48,550 nucleotides of DNA, taken from the IMG/VR virus record IMGVR_UViG_3300033174_000005; one strand, written 5' to 3'. A model generated the notes under the pieces. It was not told the DNA's origin and searched no databases. It was given only the letters and a program-made list of their open reading frames with translations. This stretch comes from a virus. Shown here piece by piece: positions 731-48,307 of the stretch. Positions within the stretch are counted from its first letter, which is position 1; every line of letters begins with the position of its first letter. The translations under genes were made by a program, and so were the position numbers.

Positions 731-757
731 ACAAATCATACTTAACTTAACAGAATC
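731..757 (+). repeat. Left arm of a 27-bp inverted repeat (partner 48281..48307)
   Basis: ACAAATCATACTTAACTTAACAGAATC; the reverse complement of 48281..48307 matches 26/27 and the inner 23 bp are perfect. Confidence 0.95.
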
Positions 758-766
758 AAAATGCTC
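758..766 (+). repeat. Left 9-bp direct repeat AAAATGCTC (attL core or target-site duplication)
   Basis: Identical copy at 48272..48280; each copy abuts one arm of the inverted repeat. Confidence 0.85.
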
Positions 767-811
767 CAGCAATGCTTAAATCACTAAAAATAAAAATCAA
801 TTCCCTTTTTC

Positions 812-1150
812 TTAGTCAGAATATGGTGTGGCTGTAAGATAATGATTCCCTATAAAATCCTCAAGGTCACCATTACACGAAGTACTATTTTTCTCATAAA
901 TTTTAACCATGTGCTCATCCAACTTTTCTAGTTCAAAATGATTGTATCGTTCAACCCATCTTTTTAGGTTGCGACAAGCATGAAAAACCTTTAATTGCAC
1001 ATCACGATTGTTACTATGCCTTATCTGTGGTCGTACCCAAACAATAAGAGCCTCATCCCTCTTACAAAATTGGCTTTCAAGCTCCAATGGAAAAATATTA
1101 TTAATTTTTTCAGCAAGCCATAAAAGTGATTGATATTTAGTCATATCCAT
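812..1150 (-). CDS. Hypothetical protein, last viral gene before the left junction
   Basis: 112-aa ORF co-oriented with the operon; no integrase motifs. Confidence 0.6.
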   Translation of the reverse strand: MDMTKYQSLLWLAEKINNIFPLELESQFCKRDEALIVWVRPQIRHSNNRDVQLKVFHACRNLKRWVERYNHFELEKLDEHMVKIYEKNSTSCNGDLEDFIGNHYLTATPYSD

Positions 1151-1330
1151 CTTTTAATCCTTTATTTTAATCTGGTCAGGGTGGAGTAATTCATTTAACA
1201 TTTCCAATGTTTTATCATCCCTTACTGGGATGTGATAACAGTCAAATCCGGGGCGGTGGGATACGAGTAATCTTTTATTTTTAAGGTCTACGTGGACTAT
1301 GTTCACAGTGTCTTGAGGGCGTTCTTTCAA

Positions 1331-1912
1331 TTATTTCCTCTCCCAAACAGTTCCAAACTCATCCATAACAATGAAAGGTTTTTTAACCCCGCCATTATAA
1401 TATTCAGACGCTTCCAATGCTTTAAATAGTTTTTCCTCTGGGTTTATATCCTCATTGAATAATACATGTAAAGCGCCGAAAGCATAATCACTTCCCCTGC
1501 CTATTGCAAGGTGGTCGTCAAGTGCGTCTATTACTCCAAAGTCATTTTGTAAGCCAAATAATTTTCCATTGAATCCGAATAAAAAATCTGCTCCCATCAT
1601 TTCTTGATCATTTTTGGTTTTGATTGATCCGTTCATTTTTAGGGTTTTTTGGATTTCTGGAACTAATAATCCACACATGTATTGTTCGGGGGTTAAATCA
1701 TGGTTTTTTGGGTTTGGTATTTCTGCACTGTATAATACAATTTGTGATGCTCTGAATTGTCCTGAAAAACCTATAAGTAATCCGTTCCTTCGGTTTACTT
1801 TGTCTTGGGCTATTATTGTGATGTTATGTTCTTTATCTATTCCGGCACTGTCTCCTCCTATATAAACAACGCCATTTTCCACTATTCCTACTATACATGT
1901 AATAAATATCAT
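1331..1912 (-). CDS. HslV/proteasome beta-like Ntn hydrolase
   Basis: TCIVG...GGDS N-terminus, K33-equivalent in QDKV, IGFSG, and AIGRGS(DYAFGAL) glycine motif. Confidence 0.8.
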   Translation of the reverse strand: MIFITCIVGIVENGVVYIGGDSAGIDKEHNITIIAQDKVNRRNGLLIGFSGQFRASQIVLYSAEIPNPKNHDLTPEQYMCGLLVPEIQKTLKMNGSIKTKNDQEMMGADFLFGFNGKLFGLQNDFGVIDALDDHLAIGRGSDYAFGALHVLFNEDINPEEKLFKALEASEYYNGGVKKPFIVMDEFGTVWERK

Positions 1913-2040
1913 GCCTCATCTATCAATCCATTCAACAAAATCTGATCTAAAATTAGAAGCCTCACCATCAAAAACAGGGATACCCTTCACCGTAGCCACA
2001 CTTACCTCATGTTTAGTTCCCTTACTACTCCCCCATCCAT

Positions 2041-2934
2041 TCACACTATTTTTCGTTCATTCTCCCATACAAATTCCACTTCATAAAAACCATCCGGATG
2101 GATATGTAATATGGGAAACCCGGCAGGTTCTGGGGGGTAAGCATCACGCTGACCATACCCTCCAAAGTAATCAAGAAAATGACCAGTAATCAGTCGCTTC
2201 TTATATATTTTAGGTTGGGTAGTCATCTGCATAGTCTCCGGATTGATAACTACTTCATGTTTAATATCATCAAAAAAGTAGAGATCATCAAATTCTAGTT
2301 TATGTTTATGTCCTATGCAAACTATATCCGCTAAACTATACTGTTCTTTTTCTCGGAGCATCTTCCGCCTCGTCCCCGTGTTTGTACCGGTTGTTCTACG
2401 CTTCCCGTGATTAATATAGAGTGTTAAACGGTATTTATTATTAATATCAATCACTATATACGCACTAATATCAATATAGGGAACATCAAGAATTTCTGCT
2501 ATGTCACGTGTGCGGCTAGTTCCTTCTGTTTTACGGCTTCGTTCTCCATCATGGTTTCCGCATGTTAAAGCCCATATTTTACCCTTTTCTGCAAGGGGGC
2601 GGTGTTTCTGTTTTATGTATTCTAATTGTTTTTTATTATTCCATACTTGTTCGTGCATGGCACTTTCTGGGCTGTCCTTGTTATTGAACTCCCCTATATC
2701 TCCCATCTCTATCATCCCAGTATTATTCCGGGATTCTATCTCTTCTAATATGTTTTCATGGAAGTTTTGGAGATATAATGGGTTGCCAGGGTGGCTGTCG
2801 CCTTTAAGGTATAAATGGTAGGGATGTTTTATATGTAATTGTCTATAAAAAACGTTGTTATCATTGAATGTTGTTGGGGTAATAGTGTATTCTGGCATAT
2901 CAGGGGTGATATGGGATATTCTATATTTAGTCAA
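2041..2934 (-). CDS. Calcineurin-like metallophosphoesterase
   Basis: Motifs GDSH, GDIGE, GNHD, NHG and GHKH. Confidence 0.85.
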   Translation of the reverse strand: MTKYRISHITPDMPEYTITPTTFNDNNVFYRQLHIKHPYHLYLKGDSHPGNPLYLQNFHENILEEIESRNNTGMIEMGDIGEFNNKDSPESAMHEQVWNNKKQLEYIKQKHRPLAEKGKIWALTCGNHDGERSRKTEGTSRTRDIAEILDVPYIDISAYIVIDINNKYRLTLYINHGKRRTTGTNTGTRRKMLREKEQYSLADIVCIGHKHKLEFDDLYFFDDIKHEVVINPETMQMTTQPKIYKKRLITGHFLDYFGGYGQRDAYPPEPAGFPILHIHPDGFYEVEFVWENERKIV

Positions 2935-2986
2935 ATTAGGTACACTACTCCATTAGTTATAAAAAAAGAATGATAGTAATAATAAT

Positions 2987-3241
2987 TTAATGTAATGATC
3001 GATTTAATTCGTTCAAGTAACTTCCATAACTCTGATTAGTAATAGGATAAATATAATACTGAAAACCAAAAGGATAACTAATCTTTTCACCCATAACATA
3101 ATGCTCAGGACCGGTTAATACTAAACCACAATTTCCACACACAATTTCACAACGTTTTTTGTCATCATGAAAGTTATCTGCACCGGATTGACATTCGGGG
3201 CATTGTTTTGGGGTTACTCTAATTATTGTCATAATATACAA
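2987..3241 (-). CDS. Stand-alone TFB/TFIIB-type zinc-ribbon protein
   Basis: CPECQS...D.KRCEIVCGNCGLVL matches the TFIIB ribbon pattern; no cyclin repeats follow. Confidence 0.75.
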   Translation of the reverse strand: MYIMTIIRVTPKQCPECQSGADNFHDDKKRCEIVCGNCGLVLTGPEHYVMGEKISYPFGFQYYIYPITNQSYGSYLNELNRSLH

Positions 3242-3390
3242 AAATCCTTCTTTGTTTTTCCTAAATTATACAGGGTATGAAAATCCACATGGCAATTTCA
3301 CACCCCTTTATATTATGTGCGAGAAGTAGGCCCCCTTATAATTAATAATAAATACATTTAAAATAAGAATAAAAAAAGAAAAAAAATGTT

Positions 3391-5490: not shown

Positions 5491-7545
5491 CTATTTTTTA
5501 TCATTCATCAAATCCTCAGCCCCACGAACCAAACGCCGAGCCTCATCACGACCCACACCAAACACACTCATCACCTCATCCAAAGCACCACCATAATCAC
5601 CAATCACACCATAATCATCAACAAAACCATCCTCCAAAACACGCATAACCTCATTTAACCGATCAAACTCAGACCGACCAGTCATACCACCCAACAAACG
5701 AGCATCCCAACGACCACTAACACGATCCAAACCCACCTCACGCAAACACTCCACCAAAATACCAACAGCACACTCACTATCCTCCCTTGTCACATAATCC
5801 CGCAGATGAGCCTTGGCCACAGCCTCAGCCAACCGTATCAAACCCTCTTCCTGCCGAGGAGTAACCGGAATAGGCACACCATCATCATCCATCGCAGACT
5901 CCCTAAGACTAAGATAAAAATCCTCAATAACCGCCTGACTTTCATCACTATGCAAAGGATTACAATTACGCCGAGCAAAAGCAATATACTTCCGGAACAA
6001 ATCAACATCAACCGGATAATCCACAACACCCTCCCGGTGCTTCTGGAAAATATGATTACTCACACGCTTATTAGTTTCAATATCATTCTTATCCTCAATA
6101 ACAAAAATCAAATCAAAACGAGACAACAAAGTATCTGGAAGATTAATTTGTTCCCTTATACTTTTATAACGATCAAAATTATCACCCTTCGGATTGGCAG
6201 CTGCGAGTATACTGGTACGGGCTGGCAGGTCTGCCTGAATATTAGCCTTGTTAATATTAACTATTTGGCGTTCCATCACATCATGCATGGCATCACGGTC
6301 ATGGTCACCCATCTTATCCATTTCATCAATACAAACAAAACCTTTATCACCCAGGACCACTGTTCCGGCTTCAAGATTCCAGTTTCCTTCCTCATCACGG
6401 ACTGCTGCTGCAGTTAATCCCACTCCACTACTTCCACTTCCACTTGCAAATATACCATTAGGTGCAAAGCTGGACACAAAACGGAGCAACTCTGTCTTCC
6501 CAGTTCCAGGGTCACCTATGAGTAAAATGTGGCTGTTATGTCTGAGAGTTGTATTATCATTTAATGTTTTAGGTGTTCCTCCAAACAGTTGACATACTAT
6601 GGCTTCTTTAATTGTATCATAACCTTTGACACTGGGTGCGATACTGTCTCTGAGCATAATAAATATGTCCGGATGGGTGCTTAGTTCCAATATCTTTTTT
6701 TCATCACTTTCTGTGATTTCCACATCATCAAAGCTTTTAATGAGTGTGTGGATATGGTTGGCTTGTATGTAATAATGATATTTTTTGGTTTTTTTATTGT
6801 GACGTATTAATGGTATTCCTGTGATGTTTATAAGGTCACCGGGTGTTGCAGTGTCAATTAATGTTCCTTCAAGTTGTACGGTCATGCTCCGTGGTTGTTG
6901 TCCTTTAGGAAGATTTTGGTAGCTGTCATAAAGTTTAATGTTTTGTATGTCTTTCATTGTGGATTTTGTGAGGTTTAGTGTCCAGTTTTTGTTTCCACAG
7001 CCCGTGCATGTTCCGGGTTCGATTAATATTTCTGGAGTTGTTTGTGGTATCATGCGGGGTGTTAAACATCCCCTACATTCATAATATGCTGTGGTAATAG
7101 TAGGTGTTCTTTCTCCCACCCTTTTAACAAGTCCTTGTATGTTATAAAGTTTGCCTATAGTTTTGGTGGTGATTTGGCGTAGGTTTTTTAGTGTGTGTCT
7201 TGGTGGTAGGTTTGTGATTTGTATTTGTAGTGTGTGCGGGGTTTTTTTTGTGTGTAGTGTTTGGCAGGTTTTTTGTATTTCTTTTATTGTTTCGATGGGT
7301 TGGTCTGTGAGTGTGTCGGCGAGGTTGATGTTGTGTTGTTCTATTGTGGTGTAATCTATTTTTAGTGTGTTGTTGTCAGGGTATGTGATGTATTTTTTTT
7401 GGATTGTGTGTTTGTGGTGGTCGGTTAGGTATTGTTCGATTTGTGTTTGTGTGGTGCTGGTGTCTTCTGGTAATGTGTGTGGGTTTTTGTGTGTTTGTGG
7501 GTGTGTTATTTTTTGTTTGAGTTTGTTTTTTCTTTTTGTGTCCAC
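5491..7545 (-). CDS. mcm: MCM replicative helicase
   Basis: Zn motif CRGC..CTGC, Walker A GDPGTGKT, Walker B IDEMDKM, AAANP, LLSRFD arginine finger, TPRQ sensor 2. Confidence 0.97.
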   Translation of the reverse strand: MDTKRKNKLKQKITHPQTHKNPHTLPEDTSTTQTQIEQYLTDHHKHTIQKKYITYPDNNTLKIDYTTIEQHNINLADTLTDQPIETIKEIQKTCQTLHTKKTPHTLQIQITNLPPRHTLKNLRQITTKTIGKLYNIQGLVKRVGERTPTITTAYYECRGCLTPRMIPQTTPEILIEPGTCTGCGNKNWTLNLTKSTMKDIQNIKLYDSYQNLPKGQQPRSMTVQLEGTLIDTATPGDLINITGIPLIRHNKKTKKYHYYIQANHIHTLIKSFDDVEITESDEKKILELSTHPDIFIMLRDSIAPSVKGYDTIKEAIVCQLFGGTPKTLNDNTTLRHNSHILLIGDPGTGKTELLRFVSSFAPNGIFASGSGSSGVGLTAAAVRDEEGNWNLEAGTVVLGDKGFVCIDEMDKMGDHDRDAMHDVMERQIVNINKANIQADLPARTSILAAANPKGDNFDRYKSIREQINLPDTLLSRFDLIFVIEDKNDIETNKRVSNHIFQKHREGVVDYPVDVDLFRKYIAFARRNCNPLHSDESQAVIEDFYLSLRESAMDDDGVPIPVTPRQEEGLIRLAEAVAKAHLRDYVTREDSECAVGILVECLREVGLDRVSGRWDARLLGGMTGRSEFDRLNEVMRVLEDGFVDDYGVIGDYGGALDEVMSVFGVGRDEARRLVRGAEDLMNDKK

Positions 7546-10244: not shown

Positions 10245-10469
10245 TCACTCCTTTATTTCATTTAAGGGTACACATTCACTTCCCGGATGCCCTACACAAT
10301 CACTACTGCAATGCATTGTACATGGGTGAGGCACACTGCGACTGCAACTGTATTTGTCACCGTGGTGGGGACAGTTGGGGTTGTTGCAGATTACAAGTTC
10401 ATAACAAGTTTGTGTCTTATGGAGTTTTCGTTGATAATCATCCAATATATCCTCAAACTCCTCACTCAT
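10245..10469 (-). CDS. Small Cys/His-rich protein
   Basis: CNNPNCPHH...CSRSVPHPCTMHC...C...C; GAGGAG RBS. Confidence 0.6.
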   Translation of the reverse strand: MSEEFEDILDDYQRKLHKTQTCYELVICNNPNCPHHGDKYSCSRSVPHPCTMHCSSDCVGHPGSECVPLNEIKE

Positions 10470-10960
10470 ACTATAACCTCTACACTTTCACTTGATTTAA
10501 CACCACTTACAAGCCTGTAACTCTGTGGATTTGTACCCAATCGCACCAAAAAACCAGCACCAACCCAACCACGCAACCATAAACCAATCTTTGCCCGGCT
10601 CAAACCCTGGCTTAACTTTTTATTTAATGGGAACTCTTTAATTATAATATTATACAAATTCTGACTATTACAAACATATTCCACGCCTTTATATGTTATA
10701 TAATTAAATACCTCCTCCTTCAAATCCTTCCACTTTCTTATCTTTTTAGGTCCGTTACGTTCATAATATTTTTTCATAAAATTAGTGTTGATTTTTTCAC
10801 GATTTTTATAATAATATTTTTTAGATGTTTTTCTCACTTTTTCACGATTTTTAGATCTCCATACAGTATGGGCGCATTGTGGCTGGCAATATTTAGCATC
10901 TCGGCGTGTGGCTGTGAACAATTCTCCACAAACTGGACAAATTCGTTGATAAACTGGCAT
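10466..10960 (-). CDS. Zinc-finger, probable DNA-binding protein
   Basis: CPVCGELF...AKYCQPQC, basic linker, possible C-terminal winged helix. Confidence 0.65.
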   Translation of the reverse strand: MPVYQRICPVCGELFTATRRDAKYCQPQCAHTVWRSKNREKVRKTSKKYYYKNREKINTNFMKKYYERNGPKKIRKWKDLKEEVFNYITYKGVEYVCNSQNLYNIIIKEFPLNKKLSQGLSRAKIGLWLRGWVGAGFLVRLGTNPQSYRLVSGVKSSESVEVIV

Positions 10961-11844: not shown

Positions 11845-12249
11845 TTATGATTTATATCCCAACACTGTTTTAGCTTTGTTAAATGTTGCTTGGTTAATTT
11901 TCTTATTTTTCAAGAATTTATCAAGGATTTTTAGCAACATAGATGGTGTGATTTTCTCAATTTTTACTCCTTTTTCGTCGAGTAATTGTTGTGTGGCTTT
12001 TTGTATTGTTTTATTTTTCACTGCTTTACTTGTGTCCTCTATTTCAACCATGCCCAGCACACCGCCGGATGCCATGCCACGCCGGCCGTTGCCGAGGTCT
12101 TCACGGTAGAATATTGTGCGTTTCTCGATGTCCACGTCCATGATTAATACGTTTGGGATTTTCTTTTTGCCGTGTTGTAGGTCTACGATGCAGCCTTTGA
12201 AGTCGATCCAGTGTTTTTTGTGAGGTGGTAAACCATTCTGCTTATTCAT
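11845..12249 (-). CDS. Hypothetical protein
   Basis: 134 aa, overlaps the ERF stop. Confidence 0.6.
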   Translation of the reverse strand: MNKQNGLPPHKKHWIDFKGCIVDLQHGKKKIPNVLIMDVDIEKRTIFYREDLGNGRRGMASGGVLGMVEIEDTSKAVKNKTIQKATQQLLDEKGVKIEKITPSMLLKILDKFLKNKKINQATFNKAKTVLGYKS

Positions 12250-12944
12250 ACTTTCAACCCTAATTCTTTTTTACACTGATTAAACTCGTCCTGTGTTATG
12301 GTTTCCTCACCCAGCATATCCTGCAACTCTTTAAGTATATGTTCAAGGTTTAGTTGTATTCCACTAACTCTAAGGGTTTCTATGGCTGTGTCAATGTGTG
12401 GTTTCTTCTCTAATACTTTAATATCCAACTCTTTACCTGTATTCTCTTTAGTTCGTCTTACTTTTCTCTTCTTAGTTCCAGACTTGGGCTTAACCTTTTT
12501 AGGCGTATCCTCTTCTACTTTTTCATTAGTCTTGTTTATACTAGCAGTGTTTCCATCGTCATCGTCTTCGCTACTTATACCAAGTAACGCGGTTAATTGA
12601 TAACGGCGTGCGTAGGTTATAGCACTCCCCGCTCCTTGTGGTGTTTTTTTATCTAATTTTAAGTAAAGTTTATCTGTTTCATAAGATTCCCCGCTCTGAT
12701 GAAACAATATAGTTTTAACAAAAATATGAGGATAAGGATTAGCAGCATTATCATAAATTAATTCTGATCCTGTGTTTTGAATTAACACTAATCCTTCTTT
12801 TGTTAAAAGCGGTCTTATCTCTTTTAGTATTTCAGGTAGAGGAGCGTATTTGCTCTTAAAAAAAGGATTTGTAGCTGTGTTCGGAGGATTTGTGATCTTT
12901 TCTTGTACTTTACATAACGCTTTGATAAGATTAGAATTATACAT
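12246..12944 (-). CDS. erf: ERF-family single-strand annealing recombinase
   Basis: NPFFKSKYAPL and PQGAGSAITYARRYQLTALLGI signatures. Confidence 0.9.
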   Translation of the reverse strand: MYNSNLIKALCKVQEKITNPPNTATNPFFKSKYAPLPEILKEIRPLLTKEGLVLIQNTGSELIYDNAANPYPHIFVKTILFHQSGESYETDKLYLKLDKKTPQGAGSAITYARRYQLTALLGISSEDDDDGNTASINKTNEKVEEDTPKKVKPKSGTKKRKVRRTKENTGKELDIKVLEKKPHIDTAIETLRVSGIQLNLEHILKELQDMLGEETITQDEFNQCKKELGLKV

Positions 12945-18162: not shown

Positions 18163-18212
18163 TATGTCAAAGAGGTATATATACTTTTCTGTTTTTATGT
18201 CAAAATGTCATA
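18163..18212 (-). promoter_or_regulatory. Early promoter: TATA box flanked by TATGTCAAA direct repeats
   Basis: TATGTCAAA at 18163 and 18196, TATATATA at 18176..18183. Confidence 0.55.
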
Positions 18213-18670
18213 ATGCCATTGGTTGCCATTAATTTAATTATGGCTTGATATTGTATGTTGCAGTATGATAATGCTTTTTGTATATCTTCTTTGGTGGGTA
18301 TGTTTTGTATATTGTAATCTTCTTTGTCATGATGTGGTCGGGGAAGTTGTGGTATTTGGATCTCGAATGTTTTGTATAATAATGTTATGCTGGTGATCCG
18401 GCTGAGTATTGTTGCGGGGCTTTCTTCATTGTTTATTTTGTGGTTTATGTATGTTATTAATCGTTTTCTTATTTTTCGGTGTTTCATTTTTATTTGTTGG
18501 TCTTCATCTTCCTCAGCTTCTTCTATTATTTGTGTTGGAGTCATATTATGGTGTTTGCAATAGTCTTTGATTTGTAATAATCTTAGTTCTATTGTTCGTG
18601 GTTTCATGTTTCTTGTTTGGAGAAACATTTGGATGTGTGGGTCTTTTTCTATATTTTCTATGGGTTTCAT
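18200..18670 (-). pseudogene. Truncated tyrosine integrase (N-terminal and core-binding part only)
   Basis: Resembles methanogen integrases (MTPTQIIEEAEEDE..QIKMKHRKI; PTKEDIQKAL..CNIQYQAIIKLMA) and stops where the catalytic Arg motif should begin. Confidence 0.75.
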
Positions 18671-19814: not shown

Positions 19815-20276
19815 TTAAGAGTATTTCTTTGATTTTACAATTAAACGATAAATAAAGTAAGGCCAATCCACATCCTCATTTATCCACATCACATTTATTC
19901 CCTGTGCCTGTATACTTGCAATTTGTCCAAGCACACTATGAGGATGTATTTGACTATAACACTCCTTTAAATTTCCATGTATCATAATAACCTTTATAGG
20001 CAGGTCTAATTCTTTGAGACGAATTAATTGTTCTTCTAATCGCTGATATTGCGTTTTATCCTTTCTTTCCCTTTTTATAGTCATGGAACTTATAAAATCA
20101 TCTATACTTTTTCTCTCAATAATTCCATATTCCCATTGGAAGTCTCCAGTATCTAATTTTTTGATTTGAACTTCTAAATCTTGATAATCTTCTGCCATAC
20201 TGAGAAATTTAGATTGAATATGTTTTGGTTCTCTTGTATCCACATATAAAGTGTGTTCCATTGTTAATACTTCCAA
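19815..20276 (-). CDS. Stand-alone ERCC4/XPF-family nuclease
   Basis: VDTRE ... L.TGDF ... ERKSIDDF signature. Confidence 0.9.
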   Translation of the reverse strand: MEVLTMEHTLYVDTREPKHIQSKFLSMAEDYQDLEVQIKKLDTGDFQWEYGIIERKSIDDFISSMTIKRERKDKTQYQRLEEQLIRLKELDLPIKVIMIHGNLKECYSQIHPHSVLGQIASIQAQGINVMWINEDVDWPYFIYRLIVKSKKYS

Positions 20277-29930: not shown

Positions 29931-30095
29931 ATGAAAAAAGAAGATAAAATAAATGATGATGAATTAAAAAAAGCCCAAATGGAATTTTATAATAATCAAA
30001 AAAAGAAGGATGAAGCAAAAGAAAAAAATGCTGGTTGGATGGCGGTAGTTTTTATTATTATTGTAGTAATTTTAGCTTACATCTTTTTAGCCTAA
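29931..30095 (+). CDS. Antisense-oriented moron: 54-aa C-terminally anchored membrane protein (not in ORF track)
   Basis: MKKEDKINDDELKKAQMEFY...GWMAVVFIIIVVILAYIFLA; TATATAAAA at 29881. Confidence 0.7.
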   Translation: MKKEDKINDDELKKAQMEFYNNQKKKDEAKEKNAGWMAVVFIIIVVILAYIFLA

Positions 30096-31246: not shown

Positions 31247-32269
31247 TTATGCTATGCTTGTTAATTGGCTCTGCAATGTTGCGCTGATAGTTTTGTCAGT
31301 TACATCATCAAATAGTGCCCAGAAGCTCATATTTACTTTGGTCATGTCACCATCGTCTCTTTTGTATTCTCGGAAGTATACTTTAGGGAGGTAAAATATT
31401 AATTGATAGTCATATGTACTTGCGATGTTTGCGCCAGTGAATGTTAGTTTCACGTTTTCGTAGTATGGTGATGTTCCCATTTCTGTTGCGCTTGCGCCTC
31501 CAAGCCATTTTTTATAATCTGTTAAATCTTCAAATACGAAGGTTATGTTTCCGGATACGTCCATTTTTGTGTGTATCATTTCACCGGGGCTGGTGGATTG
31601 GTTGTTTACTTGTTGTGCCACTACACCTGTTTCTATATCTATCCCAAATTCTGTGATTCTTGCGTCTTCTACTAGGCTTGATGGTGTGGTTCCATATTCT
31701 TCTCTTTCAAATTTCATCTGGTTGAATGTGAATGGTAATGGATCGGTTGCGTAACTTTCTGTTTGGTCGGTTGTGTCAAGGTTTACACCATATCCTATGA
31801 AGTCAAGGTCTAATTTAGCTCCTTCTTTTTCCTTAGTACTGAAACTGAACTTGTTTAACATACACGATGCAAATTCTTCTGGGACGATTGTTGCATCGTC
31901 TGTGGTCATGTTTGCCATTATTGTGAATGTTGGTCGGCTGTCACTGTCCTCTGTGAATGTGTGGAGATATGCTGCGGTGGCTCCTTGTTGTGCACTGGAT
32001 TTAGATCCTAATGCGGCGTATAGTGCGTGTTCAAGTATCATTTCGGGGAATGCGTCTACTTTTATGTTGATGTTACTGTCGTTGTAGGGTCGGATTATGC
32101 TTCTTCGTGTGTTTAGGCTTCCTGTGTGTTCTATTGGGCTGTATTCTTCTGCGTTTTGTGTTGCGTCGAAGCTTTCGTATGGTACGTATATACTTGGGGT
32201 TACTGCGGTTCCACGTTCGGTTTCTATTCCTAATCCCATCCATCGGGGTGTTCCGGGGTATGCTGTCAT
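31247..32269 (-). CDS. Major tail tube protein
   Basis: GLGIETERGT start, YLHTFT, VSGNITFVF; size and position. Confidence 0.85.
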   Translation of the reverse strand: MTAYPGTPRWMGLGIETERGTAVTPSIYVPYESFDATQNAEEYSPIEHTGSLNTRRSIIRPYNDSNINIKVDAFPEMILEHALYAALGSKSSAQQGATAAYLHTFTEDSDSRPTFTIMANMTTDDATIVPEEFASCMLNKFSFSTKEKEGAKLDLDFIGYGVNLDTTDQTESYATDPLPFTFNQMKFEREEYGTTPSSLVEDARITEFGIDIETGVVAQQVNNQSTSPGEMIHTKMDVSGNITFVFEDLTDYKKWLGGASATEMGTSPYYENVKLTFTGANIASTYDYQLIFYLPKVYFREYKRDDGDMTKVNMSFWALFDDVTDKTISATLQSQLTSIA

Positions 32270-36789: not shown

Positions 36790-37806
36790 TTAGTCTATAT
36801 TATATATTTGGTAGGATAATGTTGGAGCCACATCATACATGATACTGACCTGTCCAAGCCATCCGCTAGATGCGAAAGGTTTGGATTTACCTTCAGCAAT
36901 ATATGCCGGTGTCATAAAATCCTTAATAAATACATGTCTTTCATTGAACATTGCAAGGTCACGCTGGTTGTCAGTTGTAGTCATGTTAGGGTCTGCAATG
37001 ATTGGAATTTCACCCGTGTTACTTGCATAGGCAGGTACAGTTACACCGGCAGTGGTTTGTGTGGTGTTAACATATCTTTGGGTTGCCATCATATCTTGTT
37101 TTAACTGGTCTACAACATAATTACTAGTTAAAACAACTGTTGGGGGAGTTTTCTTAGTTTCTCTCATAACAGTTTCACCAGTGTTCAAATCTGCAACTGT
37201 TATTGCTGCTGTTGCTTTGTTAGAACGAGTACCGTTGGCAGTTATAAGGGTGTTTAACCCATCAAATTCATCAGTTCCGTCAGATGAACCAGATACTATG
37301 GTCTGGTTATATTCTTCCCTCAATGCTTCCTGTGCAAATGCGAAGAGTTGTGCTCTTGCACTGGATGAGGCACCCTTACCAATCATGTCAGACATGCTTA
37401 TAGGTAATGCCAAATATTTCATTGATGCGGTTGCGGTTCCAGTTGTTGCGGTTCCAGCCCCCTCTGTATCATCAGTTTCTCCAATCCATTCACCAGAAAA
37501 TCCGCTGGTAAATTGTATGTACTCTACTTCTGTGGTGTCATATGCTGCTCTTCGTCCTTTGCTTTCAAGATAGCTTAACATAGGAGTCATGTTGTAAAGT
37601 GTTCCTATATCATATATATTTGGGTCTAATCTGGTGGGGAAGTAGTTGGATGATGCCATTTGTTGTTTAAATTCATCTGCAACCATGCTTCTTATGTAAT
37701 CGTCTATGTCTTCTGTTCCTTCTTTTTTAAGGGCTTTGCTAGATAGTTCTATGTTTTTTACTTCAACAAGTTCTCTTAAATCTTGTACTGATACCATAAA
37801 AATCAC
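36790..37806 (-). CDS. Major capsid protein (HK97 fold)
   Basis: Follows the protease; WIGE, GS..GTDEFDGL, IPIIADPNM. Confidence 0.88.
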   Translation of the reverse strand: MIFMVSVQDLRELVEVKNIELSSKALKKEGTEDIDDYIRSMVADEFKQQMASSNYFPTRLDPNIYDIGTLYNMTPMLSYLESKGRRAAYDTTEVEYIQFTSGFSGEWIGETDDTEGAGTATTGTATASMKYLALPISMSDMIGKGASSSARAQLFAFAQEALREEYNQTIVSGSSDGTDEFDGLNTLITANGTRSNKATAAITVADLNTGETVMRETKKTPPTVVLTSNYVVDQLKQDMMATQRYVNTTQTTAGVTVPAYASNTGEIPIIADPNMTTTDNQRDLAMFNERHVFIKDFMTPAYIAEGKSKPFASSGWLGQVSIMYDVAPTLSYQIYNID

Positions 37807-37828: not shown

Positions 37829-38893
37829 TTAAGCTCCTAATTTATTAATTAACTCATCTGGAGTGTATGCTTTCTGCACAATACCTCCAATATGGGCTGG
37901 AGCTTTTAAAGGGTCGGTAAATGATTGTCCTAATATTTTTTCTGGGACGGTTTCATCTTCTTTGACAACATCATCAATCTTGGTTTTGTCAGATTCTCTG
38001 ACGTGTTCACGGGATGTTCTCATCTCTTTTAGTGCTTCTCCCAGTTTTTCTTCAACTATTTGACCGGCTACTTTACCAACTTCTGTTAGTAATTCTTTTC
38101 TTTCGTCTTCTTTTGCTTGTTTAAGTTCAGCTTTTTCTTTAGCCTCTTTTTCGGCTTTTCTTTCATCAAGTATAGCTCTTAAACTTTCTTCTAATGGTTT
38201 AAAATCGTCTTTAGTTACATATTTTTCATCCAATTTAATGGATTCTACTATTTTGTTTTCTGGCATTTTATCTACCTCTTGATTAACATTTTCTAATTCA
38301 ACATCATTTTTTACAATAAAATCATCAAAATTAACATCGTGCTTTATAAATTGAGCTATCTGGCAAGATATAGGATCATTACAGGAATCTACCATTTTGG
38401 TTTTACCACGTGTCTCGGTAACCGCTGGTATTGGTGTGACACTGACCTCATAAAGCTCTAAATCCTTGATTTCAATGATATAATCATCATCTTCCTCAAT
38501 GAAACGAGCCTTTGTTATACGTCCTCCAATACTCATACCAAGTTTAAGCCCTTCATCTAACCAGTGAAGTATTTTTTCAAGTGCTTCATCTACAAGGGGT
38601 TTTCCAGTTAATTTAAACAACTGAAAAACTGGATTAAATTCATTATCAGACGATTCCTCGACTGATACGATTTGTCCATACACTTTGTCGGGGTTGTGGT
38701 TGAGAAATCCTGGGAGACCTACTGCCATCTCTTTCATTCGTTGTATTGCTGACATTAACATCCTATGACCAGTGGCAGATGTGTTTGTGGTGGACGCTAA
38801 ACCTGAAAGGTATTGTCGTCCATCCTCTTTATAATTCTGTTGCACTGGTACCGTGAATTTAAAAGGAATGTCAACATTTCTAAAATTAGACAT
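37829..38893 (-). CDS. Prohead protease with C-terminal scaffold region
   Basis: GLAST, FLNHN, GMSIGG, LYEVSVTPIPA; charged coiled-coil tail. Confidence 0.88.
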   Translation of the reverse strand: MSNFRNVDIPFKFTVPVQQNYKEDGRQYLSGLASTTNTSATGHRMLMSAIQRMKEMAVGLPGFLNHNPDKVYGQIVSVEESSDNEFNPVFQLFKLTGKPLVDEALEKILHWLDEGLKLGMSIGGRITKARFIEEDDDYIIEIKDLELYEVSVTPIPAVTETRGKTKMVDSCNDPISCQIAQFIKHDVNFDDFIVKNDVELENVNQEVDKMPENKIVESIKLDEKYVTKDDFKPLEESLRAILDERKAEKEAKEKAELKQAKEDERKELLTEVGKVAGQIVEEKLGEALKEMRTSREHVRESDKTKIDDVVKEDETVPEKILGQSFTDPLKAPAHIGGIVQKAYTPDELINKLGA

Positions 38894-39023: not shown

Positions 39024-39953
39024 TTAATCAGTTTCAAAAGGAAAATGTGGAATAACTATTGGTAAAAACATATTACCCTCAAAAATAGGTATAAAAGTAC
39101 AACGACAATGACTATGGACAGGAATTTCCTCATCCGGGCCAATTTCATCAATATTATATACCAATCCATCACGTGGACGGCAAAGATGGCAAACACGACT
39201 ATCACGCCTTGTTACATGCATAACTTTATATATTCCCCCACTTCGCCAAGTATCTAATTTAGCTTGTTCAGTGATATAAGCAACCTCGGTTCGTGCAATA
39301 CGCTCATAAATCCAGCCAACCTTATCCATACTTGAACCGGGCTGAACACTGTTTTTCATTAACTTAGCAATCTTATCAATACTCCACCCTTTACGGTATC
39401 CTTCTCGGAGTATTGCCTCAAAAACAGGTCGATGTTTTTCACCCACAGTTTTCAGTGCAGGTAAGGTGTATTTTTCAACCCATGTGTGTACGGGCTCCCT
39501 TCTAATGTCAAAAACTGGTTTTAATGTTTCAGGTAATGGTTTGCCTCCACGCCGTACTATTTCATCATTCAATTTTTTGAAATATGTGTCTACTGCGTCC
39601 TCATAGGCTGTTTTCATAGCCCATTCATAATCATGTTTTTCCATTAAACTGTTAATTGCAGTTAAAAGCAGTCCAATAAATATAATGTCATCTGCATCTA
39701 ATTCATCATCATCCAGTGTTTGAATATACCTTTTTTCACGGTTGTACTGCCATTCATCAACTAACTCAATTATTCTTTCATATATTTCCAGTCTTAAAAT
39801 ATGGAACTGGTTAATATATTCCTTTATTTGCCTTTTTTTAACAGAATTATATGTATTATAAAGTTTGCGGTGTTCTTCATCCGAGAGATTACTGTAATCA
39901 TTCTCGGCACGGAAATCTTGGAGTGCATCATAAACTCTTCGTATCTTTAACAT
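39024..39953 (-). CDS. MuF / SPP1 gp7-like head morphogenesis protein
   Basis: ERIARTE, D.RVCHLC, PVHSHCRC. Confidence 0.88.
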   Translation of the reverse strand: MLKIRRVYDALQDFRAENDYSNLSDEEHRKLYNTYNSVKKRQIKEYINQFHILRLEIYERIIELVDEWQYNREKRYIQTLDDDELDADDIIFIGLLLTAINSLMEKHDYEWAMKTAYEDAVDTYFKKLNDEIVRRGGKPLPETLKPVFDIRREPVHTWVEKYTLPALKTVGEKHRPVFEAILREGYRKGWSIDKIAKLMKNSVQPGSSMDKVGWIYERIARTEVAYITEQAKLDTWRSGGIYKVMHVTRRDSRVCHLCRPRDGLVYNIDEIGPDEEIPVHSHCRCTFIPIFEGNMFLPIVIPHFPFETD

Positions 39954-39957
39954 AAAA

Positions 39958-41376
39958 CTATGATTCCTCGGCTAATATTCTTTCAATTTTTGATTCAAGA
40001 CGGTGTAGTGGGTCAAAATTTTGTGTTGCATTATTAGGGGCTAATGGTGTTGTACCATAACTTAATTGTCGTTGTTTTTCAATTAGTTCTATAGGAATGT
40101 ATGTGGCCTTAACAAGTGGTTGGTCAGCATATTCAAATGGATATGGAACATTACCATTAGCTACTCTTACCTCGTTAATGGTGACTTGTCCGCTCATAAT
40201 TTTTTTCTCATTTAAATCTACTAATCTCATTTCATCCTTTTTAGTGAGGTTTTTATAGGAAAGGTGAGTGTTTTTAATACCAGCAAGGTTTAAGAGTTTA
40301 CCATTAAATGGGCTGAGGTTCATCATACTCCAGTGTAGGAGTGTTTCATTCATTGTTTCGTCTTGAGATTCGCCTGTACCGGCACCTATGTTTCCTGTGT
40401 CTATTTGCATTATTTTTGCTGGTGGTACGTGGTATACTGCTGCAACGGCGTTGATATTGCTTTTTTCAATGTCTGGGGTGAGCATATCCCTGTTAGTGGC
40501 GCTTATGCTTTGGAAGTTTGCACCGTACATGACAAGATGGCCGGTTTCACCTTTTCGCTTCATTTCCTTAATATGTTCCTGCATCCGTTGTGTTTCAGTT
40601 TCAGCAGCTTTAGCAGATAATTTATCTGACAAACTGATTATACCCTTTAAACTATCGTTCTTGTAGAAGGATAGGTTGTGTTCCATAAGGCTTTCATCAA
40701 GCAAAACACGCATAAAAAGGCTGACAATTGGTGATAAACCTTTAAACATGCTGAAAGGGTTAGGATTGAAGCTATTTAGTAGGTTGGTTTCACTGTAAAC
40801 ATAATCTTTAACGGTATTAACAAAAACAATTCTTCCACTTTTTGTTTTTTCTGGTTTGATGTGGTGTGGTGGTACACGGTATAATGCTGCGGGGTATCCT
40901 GATTCATTATAACCTATTTCTACATGCCATCTTCCAGTTGTTAAAACATCCTTAGTTAATTGTAAATCAAAATCAAAATTAGATTGGTAAGGATTAGGTT
41001 CACGCATTAAACTATTAAGATATTCAATTTCACCCTTATCTGGGCGTAATGGGTCATTAGGAACTGCTACAAGTGGTGCGGCGGCGATGGGCATGGCAAT
41101 AGCATCAATAGCAGCACTAATATAAGGATTGGTCATTGCTATTTGGTAACAAGTCATAGAATCTAAGCCAAGATATGCGGCACGGAAATAATCACTTTTA
41201 TAGTAATTCATGAAATCTCCGAGGCTGTCAAAGCTCATATTACTAAAATTACTTAATGCATCTAAAAGGTCTTCTTGGCTCACTCCACTGGGTCGGGGTG
41301 TAAACACTCTTTTACCATTGTTTACCAATCCTCGCACTGCTTGTTTAATACTGTTTGTCATGTTCATAGTTATCAC
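39958..41376 (-). CDS. Portal protein (HK97-like)
   Basis: PNPYQS, GLSPI, VYHVPP, T.NEVR...G..PY. Confidence 0.9.
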   Translation of the reverse strand: MITMNMTNSIKQAVRGLVNNGKRVFTPRPSGVSQEDLLDALSNFSNMSFDSLGDFMNYYKSDYFRAAYLGLDSMTCYQIAMTNPYISAAIDAIAMPIAAAPLVAVPNDPLRPDKGEIEYLNSLMREPNPYQSNFDFDLQLTKDVLTTGRWHVEIGYNESGYPAALYRVPPHHIKPEKTKSGRIVFVNTVKDYVYSETNLLNSFNPNPFSMFKGLSPIVSLFMRVLLDESLMEHNLSFYKNDSLKGIISLSDKLSAKAAETETQRMQEHIKEMKRKGETGHLVMYGANFQSISATNRDMLTPDIEKSNINAVAAVYHVPPAKIMQIDTGNIGAGTGESQDETMNETLLHWSMMNLSPFNGKLLNLAGIKNTHLSYKNLTKKDEMRLVDLNEKKIMSGQVTINEVRVANGNVPYPFEYADQPLVKATYIPIELIEKQRQLSYGTTPLAPNNATQNFDPLHRLESKIERILAEES

Positions 41377-41433: not shown

Positions 41434-42696
41434 TTACCAGTACCCTACGCTTGTCACGAAAGGCTTAATTTTCTGACCCTCATCCACAGCATACCGGAGA
41501 GCATCAACAGGATGATCCTTATATTTCTTAGGTTTTTCAACACCCTTAAGTAAGGCTTTTTCATCCCAAACATAATTTTGAATTGCTTGTACAACATTAG
41601 GACATTCCTCGTGAACCATTAAATGTTTATCACGGAACAAGTCAGCCATACGATTAATACCAGTGTTCACATTAGGGTTGATCATAGTAGTTTCAAAACC
41701 ATCACGCTCAAACTGTTTATTTAAGCTTCGAGCATCATGTGGAACATTAATCACAGTATTACGGGGAATATTATCCATAAAAAGTTCCATTTTATTACTA
41801 AACTCCTTATCCGTTAATTGTGCCTTTTTTTCTTTAGCATTATGCACCCATTCTTTGAGGCAGTGATAAATAACATGTCCATTATCACCCTTGGTTTCAA
41901 CATATTTCAAACCCACAAGCACATAAACAGTTTCAGATGCTGTACCATAATCTAATCCTACCCGGAAACTGTCATAATTTTTATAATTCACTGGTTTGCG
42001 GAGGATGTGAACATCTTCACGGAACTGGGGAAATATACTACCCTCAGCGACAACCCATTTACCAAGAATGTCACGCTCATATTCCACACCTGTATGGGTT
42101 CTTTTAATACGTTCCTTATAGCTCTCAGTAAGAGTTAGGTTGTCATCTAAGCCAAAATGCCAAACCTTAATTTTACCAAGATTTATAAGTTCAGTGTTGG
42201 TGATAAAATCAGTGTAAATAAAATGGTAAGGCGAACCCGGGTTGCATGTCCAAAATTGTCGGTTGCCCTTTAAACTGCAACGGTCATCACAGAGTATAAC
42301 ACTTTTACGAGGGCTTGTGAGAATTTCATCAGCATACCATGAGTGAACAGTTAAACCCCTAACCTTATCTGCGCTTTGTTCATCATTTAAACCAATAACA
42401 TAAATTTCTTTATCATCCCACTCAATAATACCATCAATCTTTTTATAAACAACATCCTCACCATCCAACATCTTAAACAATGGATGTAAAACATTCCGAT
42501 AAATACTATCCCTTGTTCTCCCTGTGATAAGATGCTGATCATAAGGACTGTTTTTGACAAAAGTCATAAAAGCCACATTAGCCGCAATCGTCTTACCACT
42601 CCTTATACTGCCAGTGGCAATGTTAATCTCAGCCGTACTATTGGCAATAAAATCCAACTGCTTACGACTGAAAGGTTTATAATCAAAAGCAACCAT
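41434..42696 (-). CDS. terL: Terminase large subunit
   Basis: Walker A GSIRSGKT, RG...YADE, CNP..P.H, GLDYG, DHPVDALRY. Confidence 0.95.
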   Translation of the reverse strand: MVAFDYKPFSRKQLDFIANSTAEINIATGSIRSGKTIAANVAFMTFVKNSPYDQHLITGRTRDSIYRNVLHPLFKMLDGEDVVYKKIDGIIEWDDKEIYVIGLNDEQSADKVRGLTVHSWYADEILTSPRKSVILCDDRCSLKGNRQFWTCNPGSPYHFIYTDFITNTELINLGKIKVWHFGLDDNLTLTESYKERIKRTHTGVEYERDILGKWVVAEGSIFPQFREDVHILRKPVNYKNYDSFRVGLDYGTASETVYVLVGLKYVETKGDNGHVIYHCLKEWVHNAKEKKAQLTDKEFSNKMELFMDNIPRNTVINVPHDARSLNKQFERDGFETTMINPNVNTGINRMADLFRDKHLMVHEECPNVVQAIQNYVWDEKALLKGVEKPKKYKDHPVDALRYAVDEGQKIKPFVTSVGYW

Positions 42697-43421: not shown

Positions 43422-44060
43422 TTATTTCTTAGAAAATTCAACGTCAATAACATCATCAGGTTTCTTAGAATCCTTTTTATGATTAGACTTTTGCACCTGA
43501 CCCTCAAGTCGCTTAGCGCTCAAGTCAATGGCTGCCTTCAATGCTTCAAAGCTGTTATCAGTACGCTTAATATGCTCAGTGGATTCACCAAGACTTAGAC
43601 GCTCATACCTCATCATCTTGTCCTTACATCTTGTTAATACATCAAGACAATAACTCAATTTACTTAATTCCAATTTATCCAAGGAATTATATATCTTTTC
43701 TTCAAACAGTTTAAGCTTGTCCTGGGCTTCTCTAACATCTTTCAAGTGTCTGGTTTTCATTTCAGTGATTGCAGCAGCTTCCGATTCAAAAAAGAGTGCT
43801 GTCATATAGTCATCGTAGGCGTGTGTTCTAGATGTCCATTTTTGTTGTGATGATATGGTGTAGAGTGATTTCTTTTTCAAACTTATATCTTTTTTTTTTA
43901 ATTTTTTGATGAGTGTGTCTAAACTTCGTGGAGGTGATAGTTGCAAATATTCTTGATAATATTGATAGTGTTTTTTAGGTTCGTTTGCTTGTTGTTCCCA
44001 GGGTTTGACTTCACCTTCATCTTGTACTTTTTCAATTTCATTAGTGTTAGTGGTGGTCAT
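43422..44060 (-). CDS. Putative terminase small subunit
   Basis: KPWEQQANE...Y..Y.QL.PPRSL, W..R..AYD and helical C-terminus; upstream of TerL. Confidence 0.75.
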   Translation of the reverse strand: MTTTNTNEIEKVQDEGEVKPWEQQANEPKKHYQYYQEYLQLSPPRSLDTLIKKLKKKDISLKKKSLYTISSQQKWTSRTHAYDDYMTALFFESEAAAITEMKTRHLKDVREAQDKLKLFEEKIYNSLDKLELSKLSYCLDVLTRCKDKMMRYERLSLGESTEHIKRTDNSFEALKAAIDLSAKRLEGQVQKSNHKKDSKKPDDVIDVEFSKK

Positions 44061-44824: not shown

Positions 44825-44826
44825 AT

Positions 44827-45990: not shown

Positions 45991-45992
45991 GT

Positions 45993-46256: not shown

Positions 46257-46363
46257 CTATCCTATCTGCTATCCTATCCGCTATCGTTGGCGCTATCTTT
46301 TTACCTATCGCCCTGGCTTTCCTATCCCTATCCTATCGGCCCAGCTGTTGCTATCATCCTATC
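46257..46363 (+). repeat. Array of 12 CTATC pentamers
   Basis: Copies at 46257, 46262, 46269, 46274, 46281, 46293, 46305, 46322, 46328, 46333, 46351, 46359. Confidence 0.85.
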
Positions 46364-46547
46364 CCTATTGTTCTGGACAAGGAGGTGTACTTTTATTTTT
46401 ACTCTATTAGTTGAGTAATGTTTTATATGTGTTTACTCTATTTGGTAGGTAGGAATTATTATTACAATAAAAATGATAAATTTTACGTGTCATTTTTCGT
46501 GTTTTATTTAAACAATTCATGTCAAATAATTATAGGAGTGTGAATTT

Positions 46548-46709
46548 ATGAGTCGTGAAGGTAAAGGTGTTATCCACTGCACTATTGATAAAGAGTTTGT
46601 GGATATGTTTGATGAGTTATGTGAGGCTGATATGCGTAGCCGTAGTAATATGCTTTGTGTATTGATTAAGACGGAGTATGAAAGGTATAAAAACAAGGGC
46701 GGGGATTGA
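46548..46709 (+). CDS. CopG/Arc-like ribbon-helix-helix regulator (53 aa, not in ORF track)
   Basis: AGGAGTG RBS; VIHCTIDKEFVDMFDELCEADMRSRSNMLCVLI. Confidence 0.75.
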   Translation: MSREGKGVIHCTIDKEFVDMFDELCEADMRSRSNMLCVLIKTEYERYKNKGGD

Positions 46710-47028
46710 TTAAAAGATACACCCCCATGAGTTATATGTTTTTATATGTTTTGGTGTATATGTATCTATGTGTTTTTTGGGGGGAAAAACCATTTTTGTT
46801 TAAAGGTTTTCTGTGGAAAAACTGTTTTTTGGAATTGGGTTTTTCTATGGAAAAATGGTTTTGGAATCGGAAAAACCTAATTAAAAAATAGAAGTTGGTG
46901 ATAGAAGTTGGTGATATATCCAAAAAAAAATGGTTAAATAACTTATTTCGAAAAAAGAGTTATTTTAAAAGTTTAAAGAGGTTGTTGAAAGAGGTTGTTG
47001 ATAATTATAAAAAAAAAAGGGTTTTTTT

Positions 47029-47214
47029 TTAGTGGGTGAAAATTTCATCATTAAAATCATCAATCCTTTCCACTCTTCGCATGTTTAAACATCCACAAAC
47101 AGGGCAAATATCACTAAAAGGCAGTATTAAACTTTCATCTAATTTAACAGTAGATATTCTTATTTCCCTATACCCACATTCACATATTATTTGGTATTTA
47201 TTTATCATAAGCAA
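47029..47214 (-). CDS. Small zinc-finger protein
   Basis: CECG ... CPVCG. Confidence 0.6.
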   Translation of the reverse strand: MLMINKYQIICECGYREIRISTVKLDESLILPFSDICPVCGCLNMRRVERIDDFNDEIFTH

Positions 47215-47341
47215 CCAATTTCTTTTTTTTTTAGAACTTCTTATTTGTTCATTTCAGGGTCATGTTTCAACAAATTTAATATTGTTAAAACAATTATTAT
47301 CACTAACAATAGTGGTATAATATAAGATATCATATTAAAAT

Positions 47342-47731
47342 TCATCCAAATTTAATATAGGCAAATATACCCAGTATTATCATTATGAAAAGTCCGTTCA
47401 ATGCAACTAATATTTTATTATAATTATTGGTTTTTTCAGCATTTTGTAATCGTTTTTCATGATGGATTAACCATCTCTCAAGTTCTTTATCTTCTTTTTC
47501 TGCTTTTTCCCCGATTATATCCATCCTTTCTTTGATCTGTCCATTTGTCATATTTTTTATGCCCATGAATGTTTTTATATCGATTAGGCTGTTTTCTATT
47601 TTTGTTATGTGTCTGTTTTGGTGTTCGTTGTTTTGTTTAATGCGGTGTATGTCTTCTTGTATTTTTTTTATGTCATCACCTTTTGCGCATTCATGGAGGT
47701 AGGTGTAGGTTTTGTGTGTGTTTGGTGGCAT
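47342..47731 (-). CDS. Coiled-coil protein with C-terminal TM (holin or holin-accessory-like)
   Basis: Heptads followed by ILVALNGLFIMIILGIFAYIKFG. Confidence 0.6.
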   Translation of the reverse strand: MPPNTHKTYTYLHECAKGDDIKKIQEDIHRIKQNNEHQNRHITKIENSLIDIKTFMGIKNMTNGQIKERMDIIGEKAEKEDKELERWLIHHEKRLQNAEKTNNYNKILVALNGLFIMIILGIFAYIKFG

Positions 47732-47826
47732 GGGTGGTCACTGATTTTGGGGTTTTATTGTATATTTGGGTTAATATTATAATAAATTTAGATAACTATT
47801 TTTTTTCTATATTTTTCTATTTTTTT

Positions 47827-47905
47827 AGATGGTGAACCCTTTTCCTACTCGCTCCCATTCCACCTACGTGGACATCATCCTTTCAGAAGGACTTACTCAC
47901 CATCT
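47827..47905 (-). ncRNA. Candidate structured ncRNA with C/D-box-like K-loop
   Basis: Closing stem AGATGGTGA/TCACCATCT, internal hairpins TCCTT/AAGGA and TCCAC/GTGGA, CUGA..AUGAUG motif. Confidence 0.45.
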
Positions 47906-47965
47906 GAAAAAATAGGAAAAAAAATAGTAAAGATTAAATGATTATTACAGGTTTAGAGATCATAT

Positions 47966-48190
47966 TTAAGCTGTTTCGTCTTCATCAGGATCTGGCAGTT
48001 CATCCTCAAATTCCTGTACCTTCCCTGCTATTTCAGGGTATTTAACATCAAGATAAGCTAAAATTAATATTATTGCCATTCCCATTATTTGAAGGACTCT
48101 GTCCTGTGTTGCTACGCTTATCCCGGCACTGCCCATAATTATTAGGGCTATGTCTGATGTGTAGGTTGATATTTTTCCTTTATTTACCAT
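47966..48190 (-). CDS. Holin-like small membrane protein (2 TM, acidic tail)
   Basis: Two hydrophobic helices in 74 aa. Confidence 0.6.
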   Translation of the reverse strand: MVNKGKISTYTSDIALIIMGSAGISVATQDRVLQIMGMAIILILAYLDVKYPEIAGKVQEFEDELPDPDEDETA

Positions 48191-48271
48191 TATTATTATT
48201 CCTCCATTCTATATTTTTTTTTATCATTATTATTATGAGTATTATTATCAATGTTGTGAAAAATCCGGATA

Positions 48272-48280
48272 AAAATGCTC
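48272..48280 (+). repeat. Right 9-bp direct repeat AAAATGCTC
   Basis: Identical to 758..766. Confidence 0.85.
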
Positions 48281-48307
48281 GATTCTGTTAAGTTAAGTAT
48301 GATATGT
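48281..48307 (-). repeat. Right arm of the 27-bp inverted repeat
   Basis: GATTCTGTTAAGTTAAGTATGATATGT. Confidence 0.95.

Follow-up and report, generated by a model that had tools for sequence, protein, structure and literature searches.

A defective Methanobacterium transposon carried by a tailed virus accounts for an apparent inside-out integration junction

The 48,550-nucleotide stretch of IMG/VR virus record IMGVR_UViG_3300033174_000005 analysed here (the window) holds a tailed-virus genome with pieces of a transposon derivative at both ends. An original prediction had placed the 9-mer AAAATGCTC at 758-766 and 48272-48280 with a 26/27 inverted repeat (IR) just outside, and our sequence search agrees: the 9-mer has exactly two copies in the window, and the arms at 731-757 and 48281-48307, which form the window's top inverted repeat (27 nt, 26/27 or 96% complementary), abut the outer sides of these copies with no gap. 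Two copies of the 9-mer are weak evidence by themselves, as at least two were present in 15 of 100 shuffles. We find that the arrangement is an ordinary transposon insertion and not a new integration route, and that the contig is most probably a circular or circularly permuted genome of a Methanobacterium tailed virus, opened by the assembler within an inserted host transposon. The features on which this argument turns are as follows (aa, amino acids; contigs L018 and L021 are described below).

1-757, minus strand: transposon derivative, right-hand part, cut off at the window start; a stretch of 1207 bp shared with the host's full-length copy takes in 1-127
116-127, no strand: joint of deletion 2, with 12 bp of microhomology and 969 bp lost; the undeleted form is in L021
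174-383, minus strand: intact 69-aa RelB-like antitoxin candidate, a weak assignment (NCBIfam antitoxin_RelB_like, E 0.005, below cutoff)
735-757, minus strand: right terminal inverted repeat (IRR), the invariant 23-bp core; the predicted arm at 731-757 adds four variable bases
758-766, plus strand: target-site duplication (TSD) AAAATGCTC, first copy; a single copy stands in the empty site, L018:947-955
767-48271, nearly all genes on the minus strand: tailed-virus genome, a 47,514-bp unit including one 9-bp copy
812-1150, minus strand: 112-aa viral gene beside the insertion, directly followed in L018 by the 74-aa gene
47966-48190, minus strand: 74-aa viral gene flanking the insertion opposite the 112-aa gene
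48272-48280, plus strand: copy 2 of the target-site duplication AAAATGCTC, by comparison with the empty site
48281-48303, plus strand: left terminal inverted repeat (IRL), 23-bp core GATTCTGTTAAGTTAAGTATGAT, from the alignment of copies
48281-48550, plus strand: transposon derivative, left-hand part, cut off at the window end; its last 127 bases (48424-48550) come from the shared 1207-bp stretch
48417-48430, no strand: joint of deletion 1, with 14 bp of microhomology and 1601 bp lost

The arms belong to a mobile element. We found their first 20 bases in Methanobacterium metagenome-assembled genomes (MAGs) and metagenome contigs (four stretches from scans of a genome collection and nine from a metagenome collection), while the corresponding scan of a viral-contig collection gave no match. 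When eight copies are aligned, the conserved part has the G of GATTCTG exactly as its first base and is invariant over 23 bases, with unrelated outer flanks; only these 23 of the 27 arm bases are constant, positions 24-27 differing between copies. Because the sharp-edged 23-bp terminus GATTCTGTTAAGTTAAGTATGAT recurs in other Methanobacterium genomes and metagenomes, the pairing of arm and 9-mer is not a matter of chance. The termini are perfect 23-bp inverted repeats starting GATTCTGTT, and where one contig has both ends, these stand in the order duplication, left end, right end, duplication, with duplications of 9 bp.

The element in Ga0334896_1000001, to which we refer as the host copy, runs from L009:541 to L007:1308 (4574 bp) with AAAGTGTAA on both sides, and its outer flanks read ...AAAAAGTGTAA on the left and AAAGTGTAAAAATAT... 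on the right; L009 and L007 are adjacent pieces, since an open reading frame (ORF) of 258 aa crosses their joint. A second element, in L012, has its ends at 986 and 6152 (5167 bp) and is flanked by TGATCAAAA; the same insertion is found in a contig of the fen_9 MAG (L002 plus L003). The target duplication is 9 bp at all three independent sites, namely AAAATGCTC in the window, AAAGTGTAA in L009/L007 and TGATCAAAA in L012. A fourth insertion site, with the flank ...TTATGATCCACCA, occurs in bog and fen Methanobacterium contigs (L001:4583, L005:325, L010:328 and L013:471); the interior there is different from that of the other copies, and one end only lies within the DNA examined. L006 shares just the first 20 bases of the arm, and two candidate copies, L004 (Ignavibacteriaceae) and L011 (TARA), were treated as chance matches because their sequence diverges right after the 20-mer.

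Both the host copy and the L012 element encode a 283-aa transposase with an N-terminal zinc finger. The protein passes the NCBIfam IS6 equivalog NF033587 transpos_IS6 (134.4 bits, cutoff 125, E 4e-39), which bears out the predicted resemblance of the arms to IS6-family ends, and it matches Pfam PF13610 DDE_Tnp_IS240 (E 3.6e-17). It stays under the cutoff of the IS1 equivalog (77.7 bits, cutoff 100), and its N-terminus matches the IS1/IS1595-type zinc-binding family NCBIfam NF050000 (44.9 bits, cutoff 28). A search around the transposase gene for the inner ends of a nested smaller insertion sequence (IS) found none with up to four mismatches to the 17-bp core; as no second similar pair flanks the gene, the 23-bp termini are the likely cognate ends of this transposase.

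The two elements share a transposase module at about 80% identity and differ in the remaining cargo: a conserved left module holds a SHOCT-like ORF, a MazE-like ORF and the zinc-finger transposase gene, the cargo is variable, and the repeat-bounded unit carries six to eight passenger ORFs. Among the cargo are a MazE/AbrB-like protein and a ParE-like plus RelB-like pair, all weak assignments below curated cutoffs (E 4e-4 against ParE-like families for the toxin candidate in L007 and L021). The 258-aa element protein (L021:2390-3166) is a borderline match to Pfam Proteasome (22.2 bits, cutoff 22.4) and has no significant BLASTP similarity to the viral HslV-like protein encoded at 1331-1912 (E 0.06).

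Like members of the IS6 (IS6/IS26) family, the element combines a transposase that passes both IS6-family profiles with short perfect terminal inverted repeats and a target duplication of fixed length. Its termini start G-TTCTGTT and agree with the family motif GGTTCTG../GGnnnTG, taken from the original prediction and the literature (PMC6807381), except at the second base, which is A and not G; the longer IS6 members that have an N-terminal zinc-finger transposase are closest (clade h, PMC7986276). In contrast to the family, the element duplicates 9 bp instead of 8 bp, and it spans 4574 or 5167 bp between its only matching pair of ends, with its passenger ORFs, where IS6 elements are compact and have a single ORF. 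Typical IS6 members measure 0.7-0.9 kb and the longest clades reach about 1.8 kb, with one passenger-carrying member reported, ISDsp3 (PMC7986276). The end motif is common to IS1 and IS6 (PMC6807381). With IS1 the element shares the 9-bp duplication, the IS1/IS1595-type N-terminal zinc-binding domain of the transposase and a similar end motif, but its transposase fails the IS1 equivalog and passes that of IS6. The IS1 family makes 8-9-bp duplications, has GGnnnTG ends and includes archaeal ISMhu11-type members of up to several kb; a literature search for ISMhu11 found nothing. Because of the 9-bp duplication, the GA tip, the size and passengers, and the zinc finger, duplication and end motif shared with IS1, we assign the element not to typical IS6 but to an undescribed subgroup: it is an IS6-type, cargo-carrying Methanobacterium transposon that makes 9-bp duplications, with L009:1075-1926, L012 and L002/L003 as the group's loci.

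The site without the element is present in a related virus. JGI contig L018, from a virus 93-96% identical to that of the window, encodes a protein 96% identical to the 112-aa protein, aligns to window 1711-755 and then passes directly to 48280-48068; the joint is a single GAGCATTTT, the reverse complement of AAAATGCTC. Since L018 reads straight across with one 9-mer, positions 48280 and 767 are neighbours in native viral DNA, and the two copies of AAAATGCTC are a true target-site duplication. The element is an intergenic insertion between the 112-aa and 74-aa genes, with 9 bp duplicated. L018 came from a separate search: in the viral-contig collection, a scan with a 25-mer of the uninterrupted junction gave no match, a search with the 112-aa protein returned no usable locus, and a terminase search returned only relatives of 33% identity, too distant for a comparison of the junction.

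A second contig closes the genome through one element. L021, an ENA contig of 6773 bp that belongs to a separate k141 assembly, leads from virus 2259-758 through the right end, a 2959-bp element that has deletion 1 and not deletion 2, and the left end into virus 48280-45969. Because L021 runs through from one side to the other, the two virus ends are physically joined via a single element. Its virus backbone differs from the window by a single base. A graph chimera is argued against by the variant at 732-734, which lies only 24 bp from the junction, so that 141-mers span both virus DNA and the variant. The element in L021 (L021:1503-4461) is a mosaic: its right 2826 bp have one difference from the host copy (99.97% identical), and its left 151 bp are of the window type, with six differences from the host (Fisher p = 1e-7 against the right part). 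This mosaic suggests exchange between viral and chromosomal copies, and a mosaic donor element explains it equally well. Compared with L021 and L009/L007, the window variant has deletion 2 and differences at 164, 430 and 732-734.

We aligned the viral copy with the host element and found that 48281-48430 corresponds to L009:541-690 (96%), 48417-48550 to L009:2292-2425 (99%), 1-127 to L009:3379-3505 (100%) and 116-760 to L007:669-1311 (98.8%). As the flanks are colinear with the host element except at the two joints, the viral copy has two microhomology deletions. Deletion 1 takes away the MazE/AbrB-like gene and the IS6-family transposase gene; what it leaves is a chimeric ORF (48397-48486, minus strand), terminated by a premature stop. 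Through deletion 2 the 258-aa gene has lost its greater part and the ParE-like toxin gene its C-terminal four-fifths, and a chimeric 35-aa ORF (73-180, minus strand) is left. The window variant thus retains the RelB-like antitoxin candidate and has lost its neighbouring ParE-like toxin partner; such an orphan antitoxin candidate on the virus could counter a host toxin, the family assignments being weak. With both cognate termini, a target duplication, no transposase gene and a full-length host copy in the same metagenome runs, the viral copy (about 1,980 bp) is a non-autonomous derivative that cannot move on its own. The virus population therefore has three forms: an empty site, a 2959-bp insert and an insert of about 1980 bp.

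To see how the window ends arose, we aligned Logan contigs from four sludge-metagenome runs (X1, X3, X7 and X8) on window 46500-48550; their depths are rough and are not copy numbers. Contigs of X1, X3 and X7 cross the junction of virus and left end without differences, and in X8 virus coverage is too thin for the junction. The host-type left end, three substitutions and two indels apart, also occurs in X1, X3 and X7, and its outer flank CACAAAATAGATACCTATTAAAAAGTGTAA is that of L009. A 1207-bp contig of X1 covers 48424-48550 and continues for a further 1080 bases, corresponding as 127+953+127 to L009:2299-3505. Exactly 127 bases of this shared stretch stand at each window end, and the window end and window start lie 953 bp apart in the host element, so the ends look like those of a k=127 assembler stopping at a repeat. 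The assembler could not cross the 1207-bp stretch because the full-length host copy in the same samples shares it, and the apparent IR, direct repeat, virus, direct repeat, IR order arises because a linear reading puts the element's two ends at the contig ends, facing outward. The original prediction had the virus bounded by an inside-out junction, and it took direct-repeat copies of one IS on each side as support for transposon ends; this is no junction in a host chromosome: both flanks proved to consist of element DNA only, without chromosomal DNA, and they are the two ends of one element joined via the 953 bp that the window lacks. A further joint, from 48085 to 48281 (X3, X8), was disregarded, as one of its sides is just 24 bases with two mismatches in the host flank.

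The strongest competitor, which we consider improbable, is a cointegrate prophage: the virus would lie in the chromosome between two direct copies of the element, through IS6-type replicative transposition or recombination between viral and chromosomal copies, and the window would be the inner part. Cointegrates are the normal product of the IS6 family (PMC6807381, PMC7986276), and a linear order of IRR, TSD, virus, TSD and IRL is the picture expected of one; yet neither window flank has chromosomal DNA, and L021 links both virus ends via one element. The mosaic element of L021 is also the trace that repeated exchange with chromosomal copies would leave, and a hybrid integrated form is compatible with the assembly graph. 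The contigs of single runs nevertheless point the other way. For the virus-type left end, which has single-nucleotide polymorphisms of its own, X1 offers only viral context, on an unbroken contig (47874-48396). The joint of deletion 1, a separate contig in X1 and X7, has a depth of 11.5 in X1 on its small contig, about one per virus genome and equal to virus depth rather than double, and the depth of the 1207-bp contig, 23.5, is near that of virus (14.1) plus host (8.4), of which the virus is the deeper. In X3, where virus depth is 19, a host contig of 16,990 bp and depth 125.6 continues from the transposase gene across the shared stretch and past the right end for 13 kb of host flank, and no virus lies on it. 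The ratio of virus to host depth is about 1.7 in X1, 0.15 in X3 and 0.5 in X7, and because it varies in this way the virus is not tied one-to-one to the host chromosome. Of the two options that the original prediction grouped under transposon ends, the one that has the assembly opened through a virus-borne transposon thus holds, and capture by cointegration is disfavoured by the depths and contexts in X1 and by the single-element closure in L021.

Wrong attachment of element ends to a virus contig during assembly is very improbable: the contig does end within a repeat also present in the host, but the virus/left-end junction recurs without differences in Logan contigs of three runs, at least four ENA contigs, each assembled separately (L019-L022), contain the virus/right-end junction, and the 9-bp duplication exactly matches the empty site. 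The other predicted option, integration by a host recombinase at a palindromic chromosomal site (27-bp arm, AAAATGCTC, 27-bp arm), can for practical purposes be set aside, for although removal of the virus leaves a palindrome, this is a formal point only: the arms are transposon termini, separated elsewhere by 4.6-5.2 kb and normally oriented, a 9-bp spacing of two arms occurs in 0 of the 13 matching stretches (four from the genome and nine from the metagenome collection), the DNA beyond the arms is element interior, and the unoccupied site is viral, not chromosomal (L018).

Several points weigh against reading the contig as a circular or circularly permuted genome opened within its transposon. 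No read or contig of the window's own double-deletion variant was seen to cross the whole 1207-bp shared stretch, and closure of that variant rests on elimination and on L021, which has deletion 1 only. The contig depths, rough as they are, provide no copy numbers. The two-in/two-out assembly graph fits a free circle plus a host copy, and equally a virus integrated by recombination within the shared stretch. The duplication is 9 bp against the 8 bp typical of IS6 (PMC7986276).

On the reading that we prefer, a circular or permuted virus genome with an inserted host element, an IS6-type transposon would have jumped from the host chromosome into the intergenic space that separates the 112-aa gene from the 74-aa gene, duplicating AAAATGCTC, presumably while the virus replicated in an element-carrying host. 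If the process was IS26-like, chromosome and virus would first have fused, and homologous recombination would then have resolved the fusion (PMC6807381, PMC7986276). The viral copy would subsequently have lost its transposase through the 1601-bp microhomology deletion, and the window variant 969 bp more. Thereafter the virus would circulate in circular or circularly permuted form at about 49.5 kb, its virion or replicative DNA probably being a free circle or a headful concatemer. Headful packaging, usual with T4-like large terminases, yields circularly permuted genomes, and these assemble as circles.

The virus itself was characterized by Pfam or PHROGs scans of 50 ORFs inside it, including every ORF of at least 250 aa. 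Its remaining features, assigned by profile search unless another basis is given, are the following.

1331-1912, minus strand: HslV-like peptidase (PHROG 1040, E 3e-10)
5491-7545: MCM helicase
10466-10960: NinG
12246-12944: ERF recombinase
19815-20276: ERCC4 nuclease
20314-21072: M23 peptidase, lysis candidate
26888-29845, minus strand: 985-aa ORF, probably the tape-measure gene, by size and position only
31247-32269: tail tube protein
36790-37806: major capsid protein
37829-38893: prohead protease
39024-39953: MuF
39958-41376: portal
41434-42696: large terminase, T4-like (Terminase_6N/6C)
43422-44060: small terminase

The Caudoviricetes marker set (large terminase, portal, prohead protease, major capsid and tail tube) is complete, and the virus is a tailed virus of the Caudoviricetes. 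Its unit of 47,514 bp comes to about 49,503 bp with the insert. The nearest portal among deposited phages, at 27% identity, is that of Caudoviricetes sp. vir080, whose recorded host is Methanobacteriales. Apart from the ERF recombinase listed above, the 50 scanned ORFs gave no match to an integrase, recombinase or transposase, in agreement, as far as tested, with the predicted lack of a recombinase gene, and an ORF at 18200-18670 (minus strand) had neither a Pfam nor a PHROGs match. The marks of an integrated provirus (host DNA on both sides, an att core and a cognate integrase) are not seen here: the flanks are element-only, the 9-bp repeat is a transposon duplication, and the 50 ORFs include no integrase.

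Two short stretches of the virus recur elsewhere. Downstream of the 985-aa ORF, 29944-30077 is 78% identical to L007:1468-1601, a 135-bp stretch just outside the host element and within a zinc-ribbon gene (L007:1377-1622); a small zinc-ribbon gene may be common to virus and host. At 47829-47870, about 40 bases are common to high-depth contigs from elsewhere (depth 22-129) in X1, X3 and X7, with a 1-base deletion at 47840; for this intergenic spot, one possibility is a short repeat that the host or other viruses also have.

Host insertion sequences are known from other virus genomes, such as ISH1.8 in the Halobacterium phage PhiH and IS1 in coliphage P1. As in those cases, a host element here lies between genes of a virus and varies in form among members of the virus population; the differences are the methanogen host, the transposase-less copy and the toxin-antitoxin-like cargo.

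The original prediction also read the junction as a route to integrase-independent lysogeny, and no integrated form was observed in the contigs examined. A residual version of this idea, which we regard as speculative and rather unlikely, is that the transposase-less copy may serve the virus as an attachment site. Fusion with the chromosome would be reversible and would come about through the host's IS6-type transposase, by IS26-like targeted conservative cointegration, or through homologous recombination over 1.2-2.8 kb of shared DNA, perhaps aided by the viral ERF recombinase, giving lysogeny free of an integrase. The F plasmid forms Hfr strains by integrating via shared IS copies. For targeted conservative cointegration by IS26, one active transposase gene suffices, at a 30-fold lower rate (PMC4196232). 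The likeness to both systems is that a circular replicon and a chromosome share one element; the difference is that no fused form was observed here, and integration is a possible consequence only. If the copy does act as an attachment site, the mosaic in L021 would be the scar of cycles of integration and excision, and the orphan antitoxin candidate might shield the virus from the host's ParE-like toxin.

The apparent new integration mechanism is therefore an artefact of where the contig opens, and recognizing it as such averts false claims of an 'inside-out' att site and of integrase-independent lysogeny. The series in public data, from the empty site through the 2959-bp insert to that of about 1,980 bp, shows an archaeal virus acquiring a host element and the element's subsequent erosion. 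The near-identical mobile element (one difference in 2826 bp, in L021) links the virus to a co-occurring host lineage with the same element, whose other carriers are Methanobacterium MAGs; the virus is otherwise unplaced, and no deposited phage has a portal more than 27% identical to its own. The element also defines a previously undescribed group, the cargo-carrying IS6-type transposons of Methanobacterium that make 9-bp duplications.

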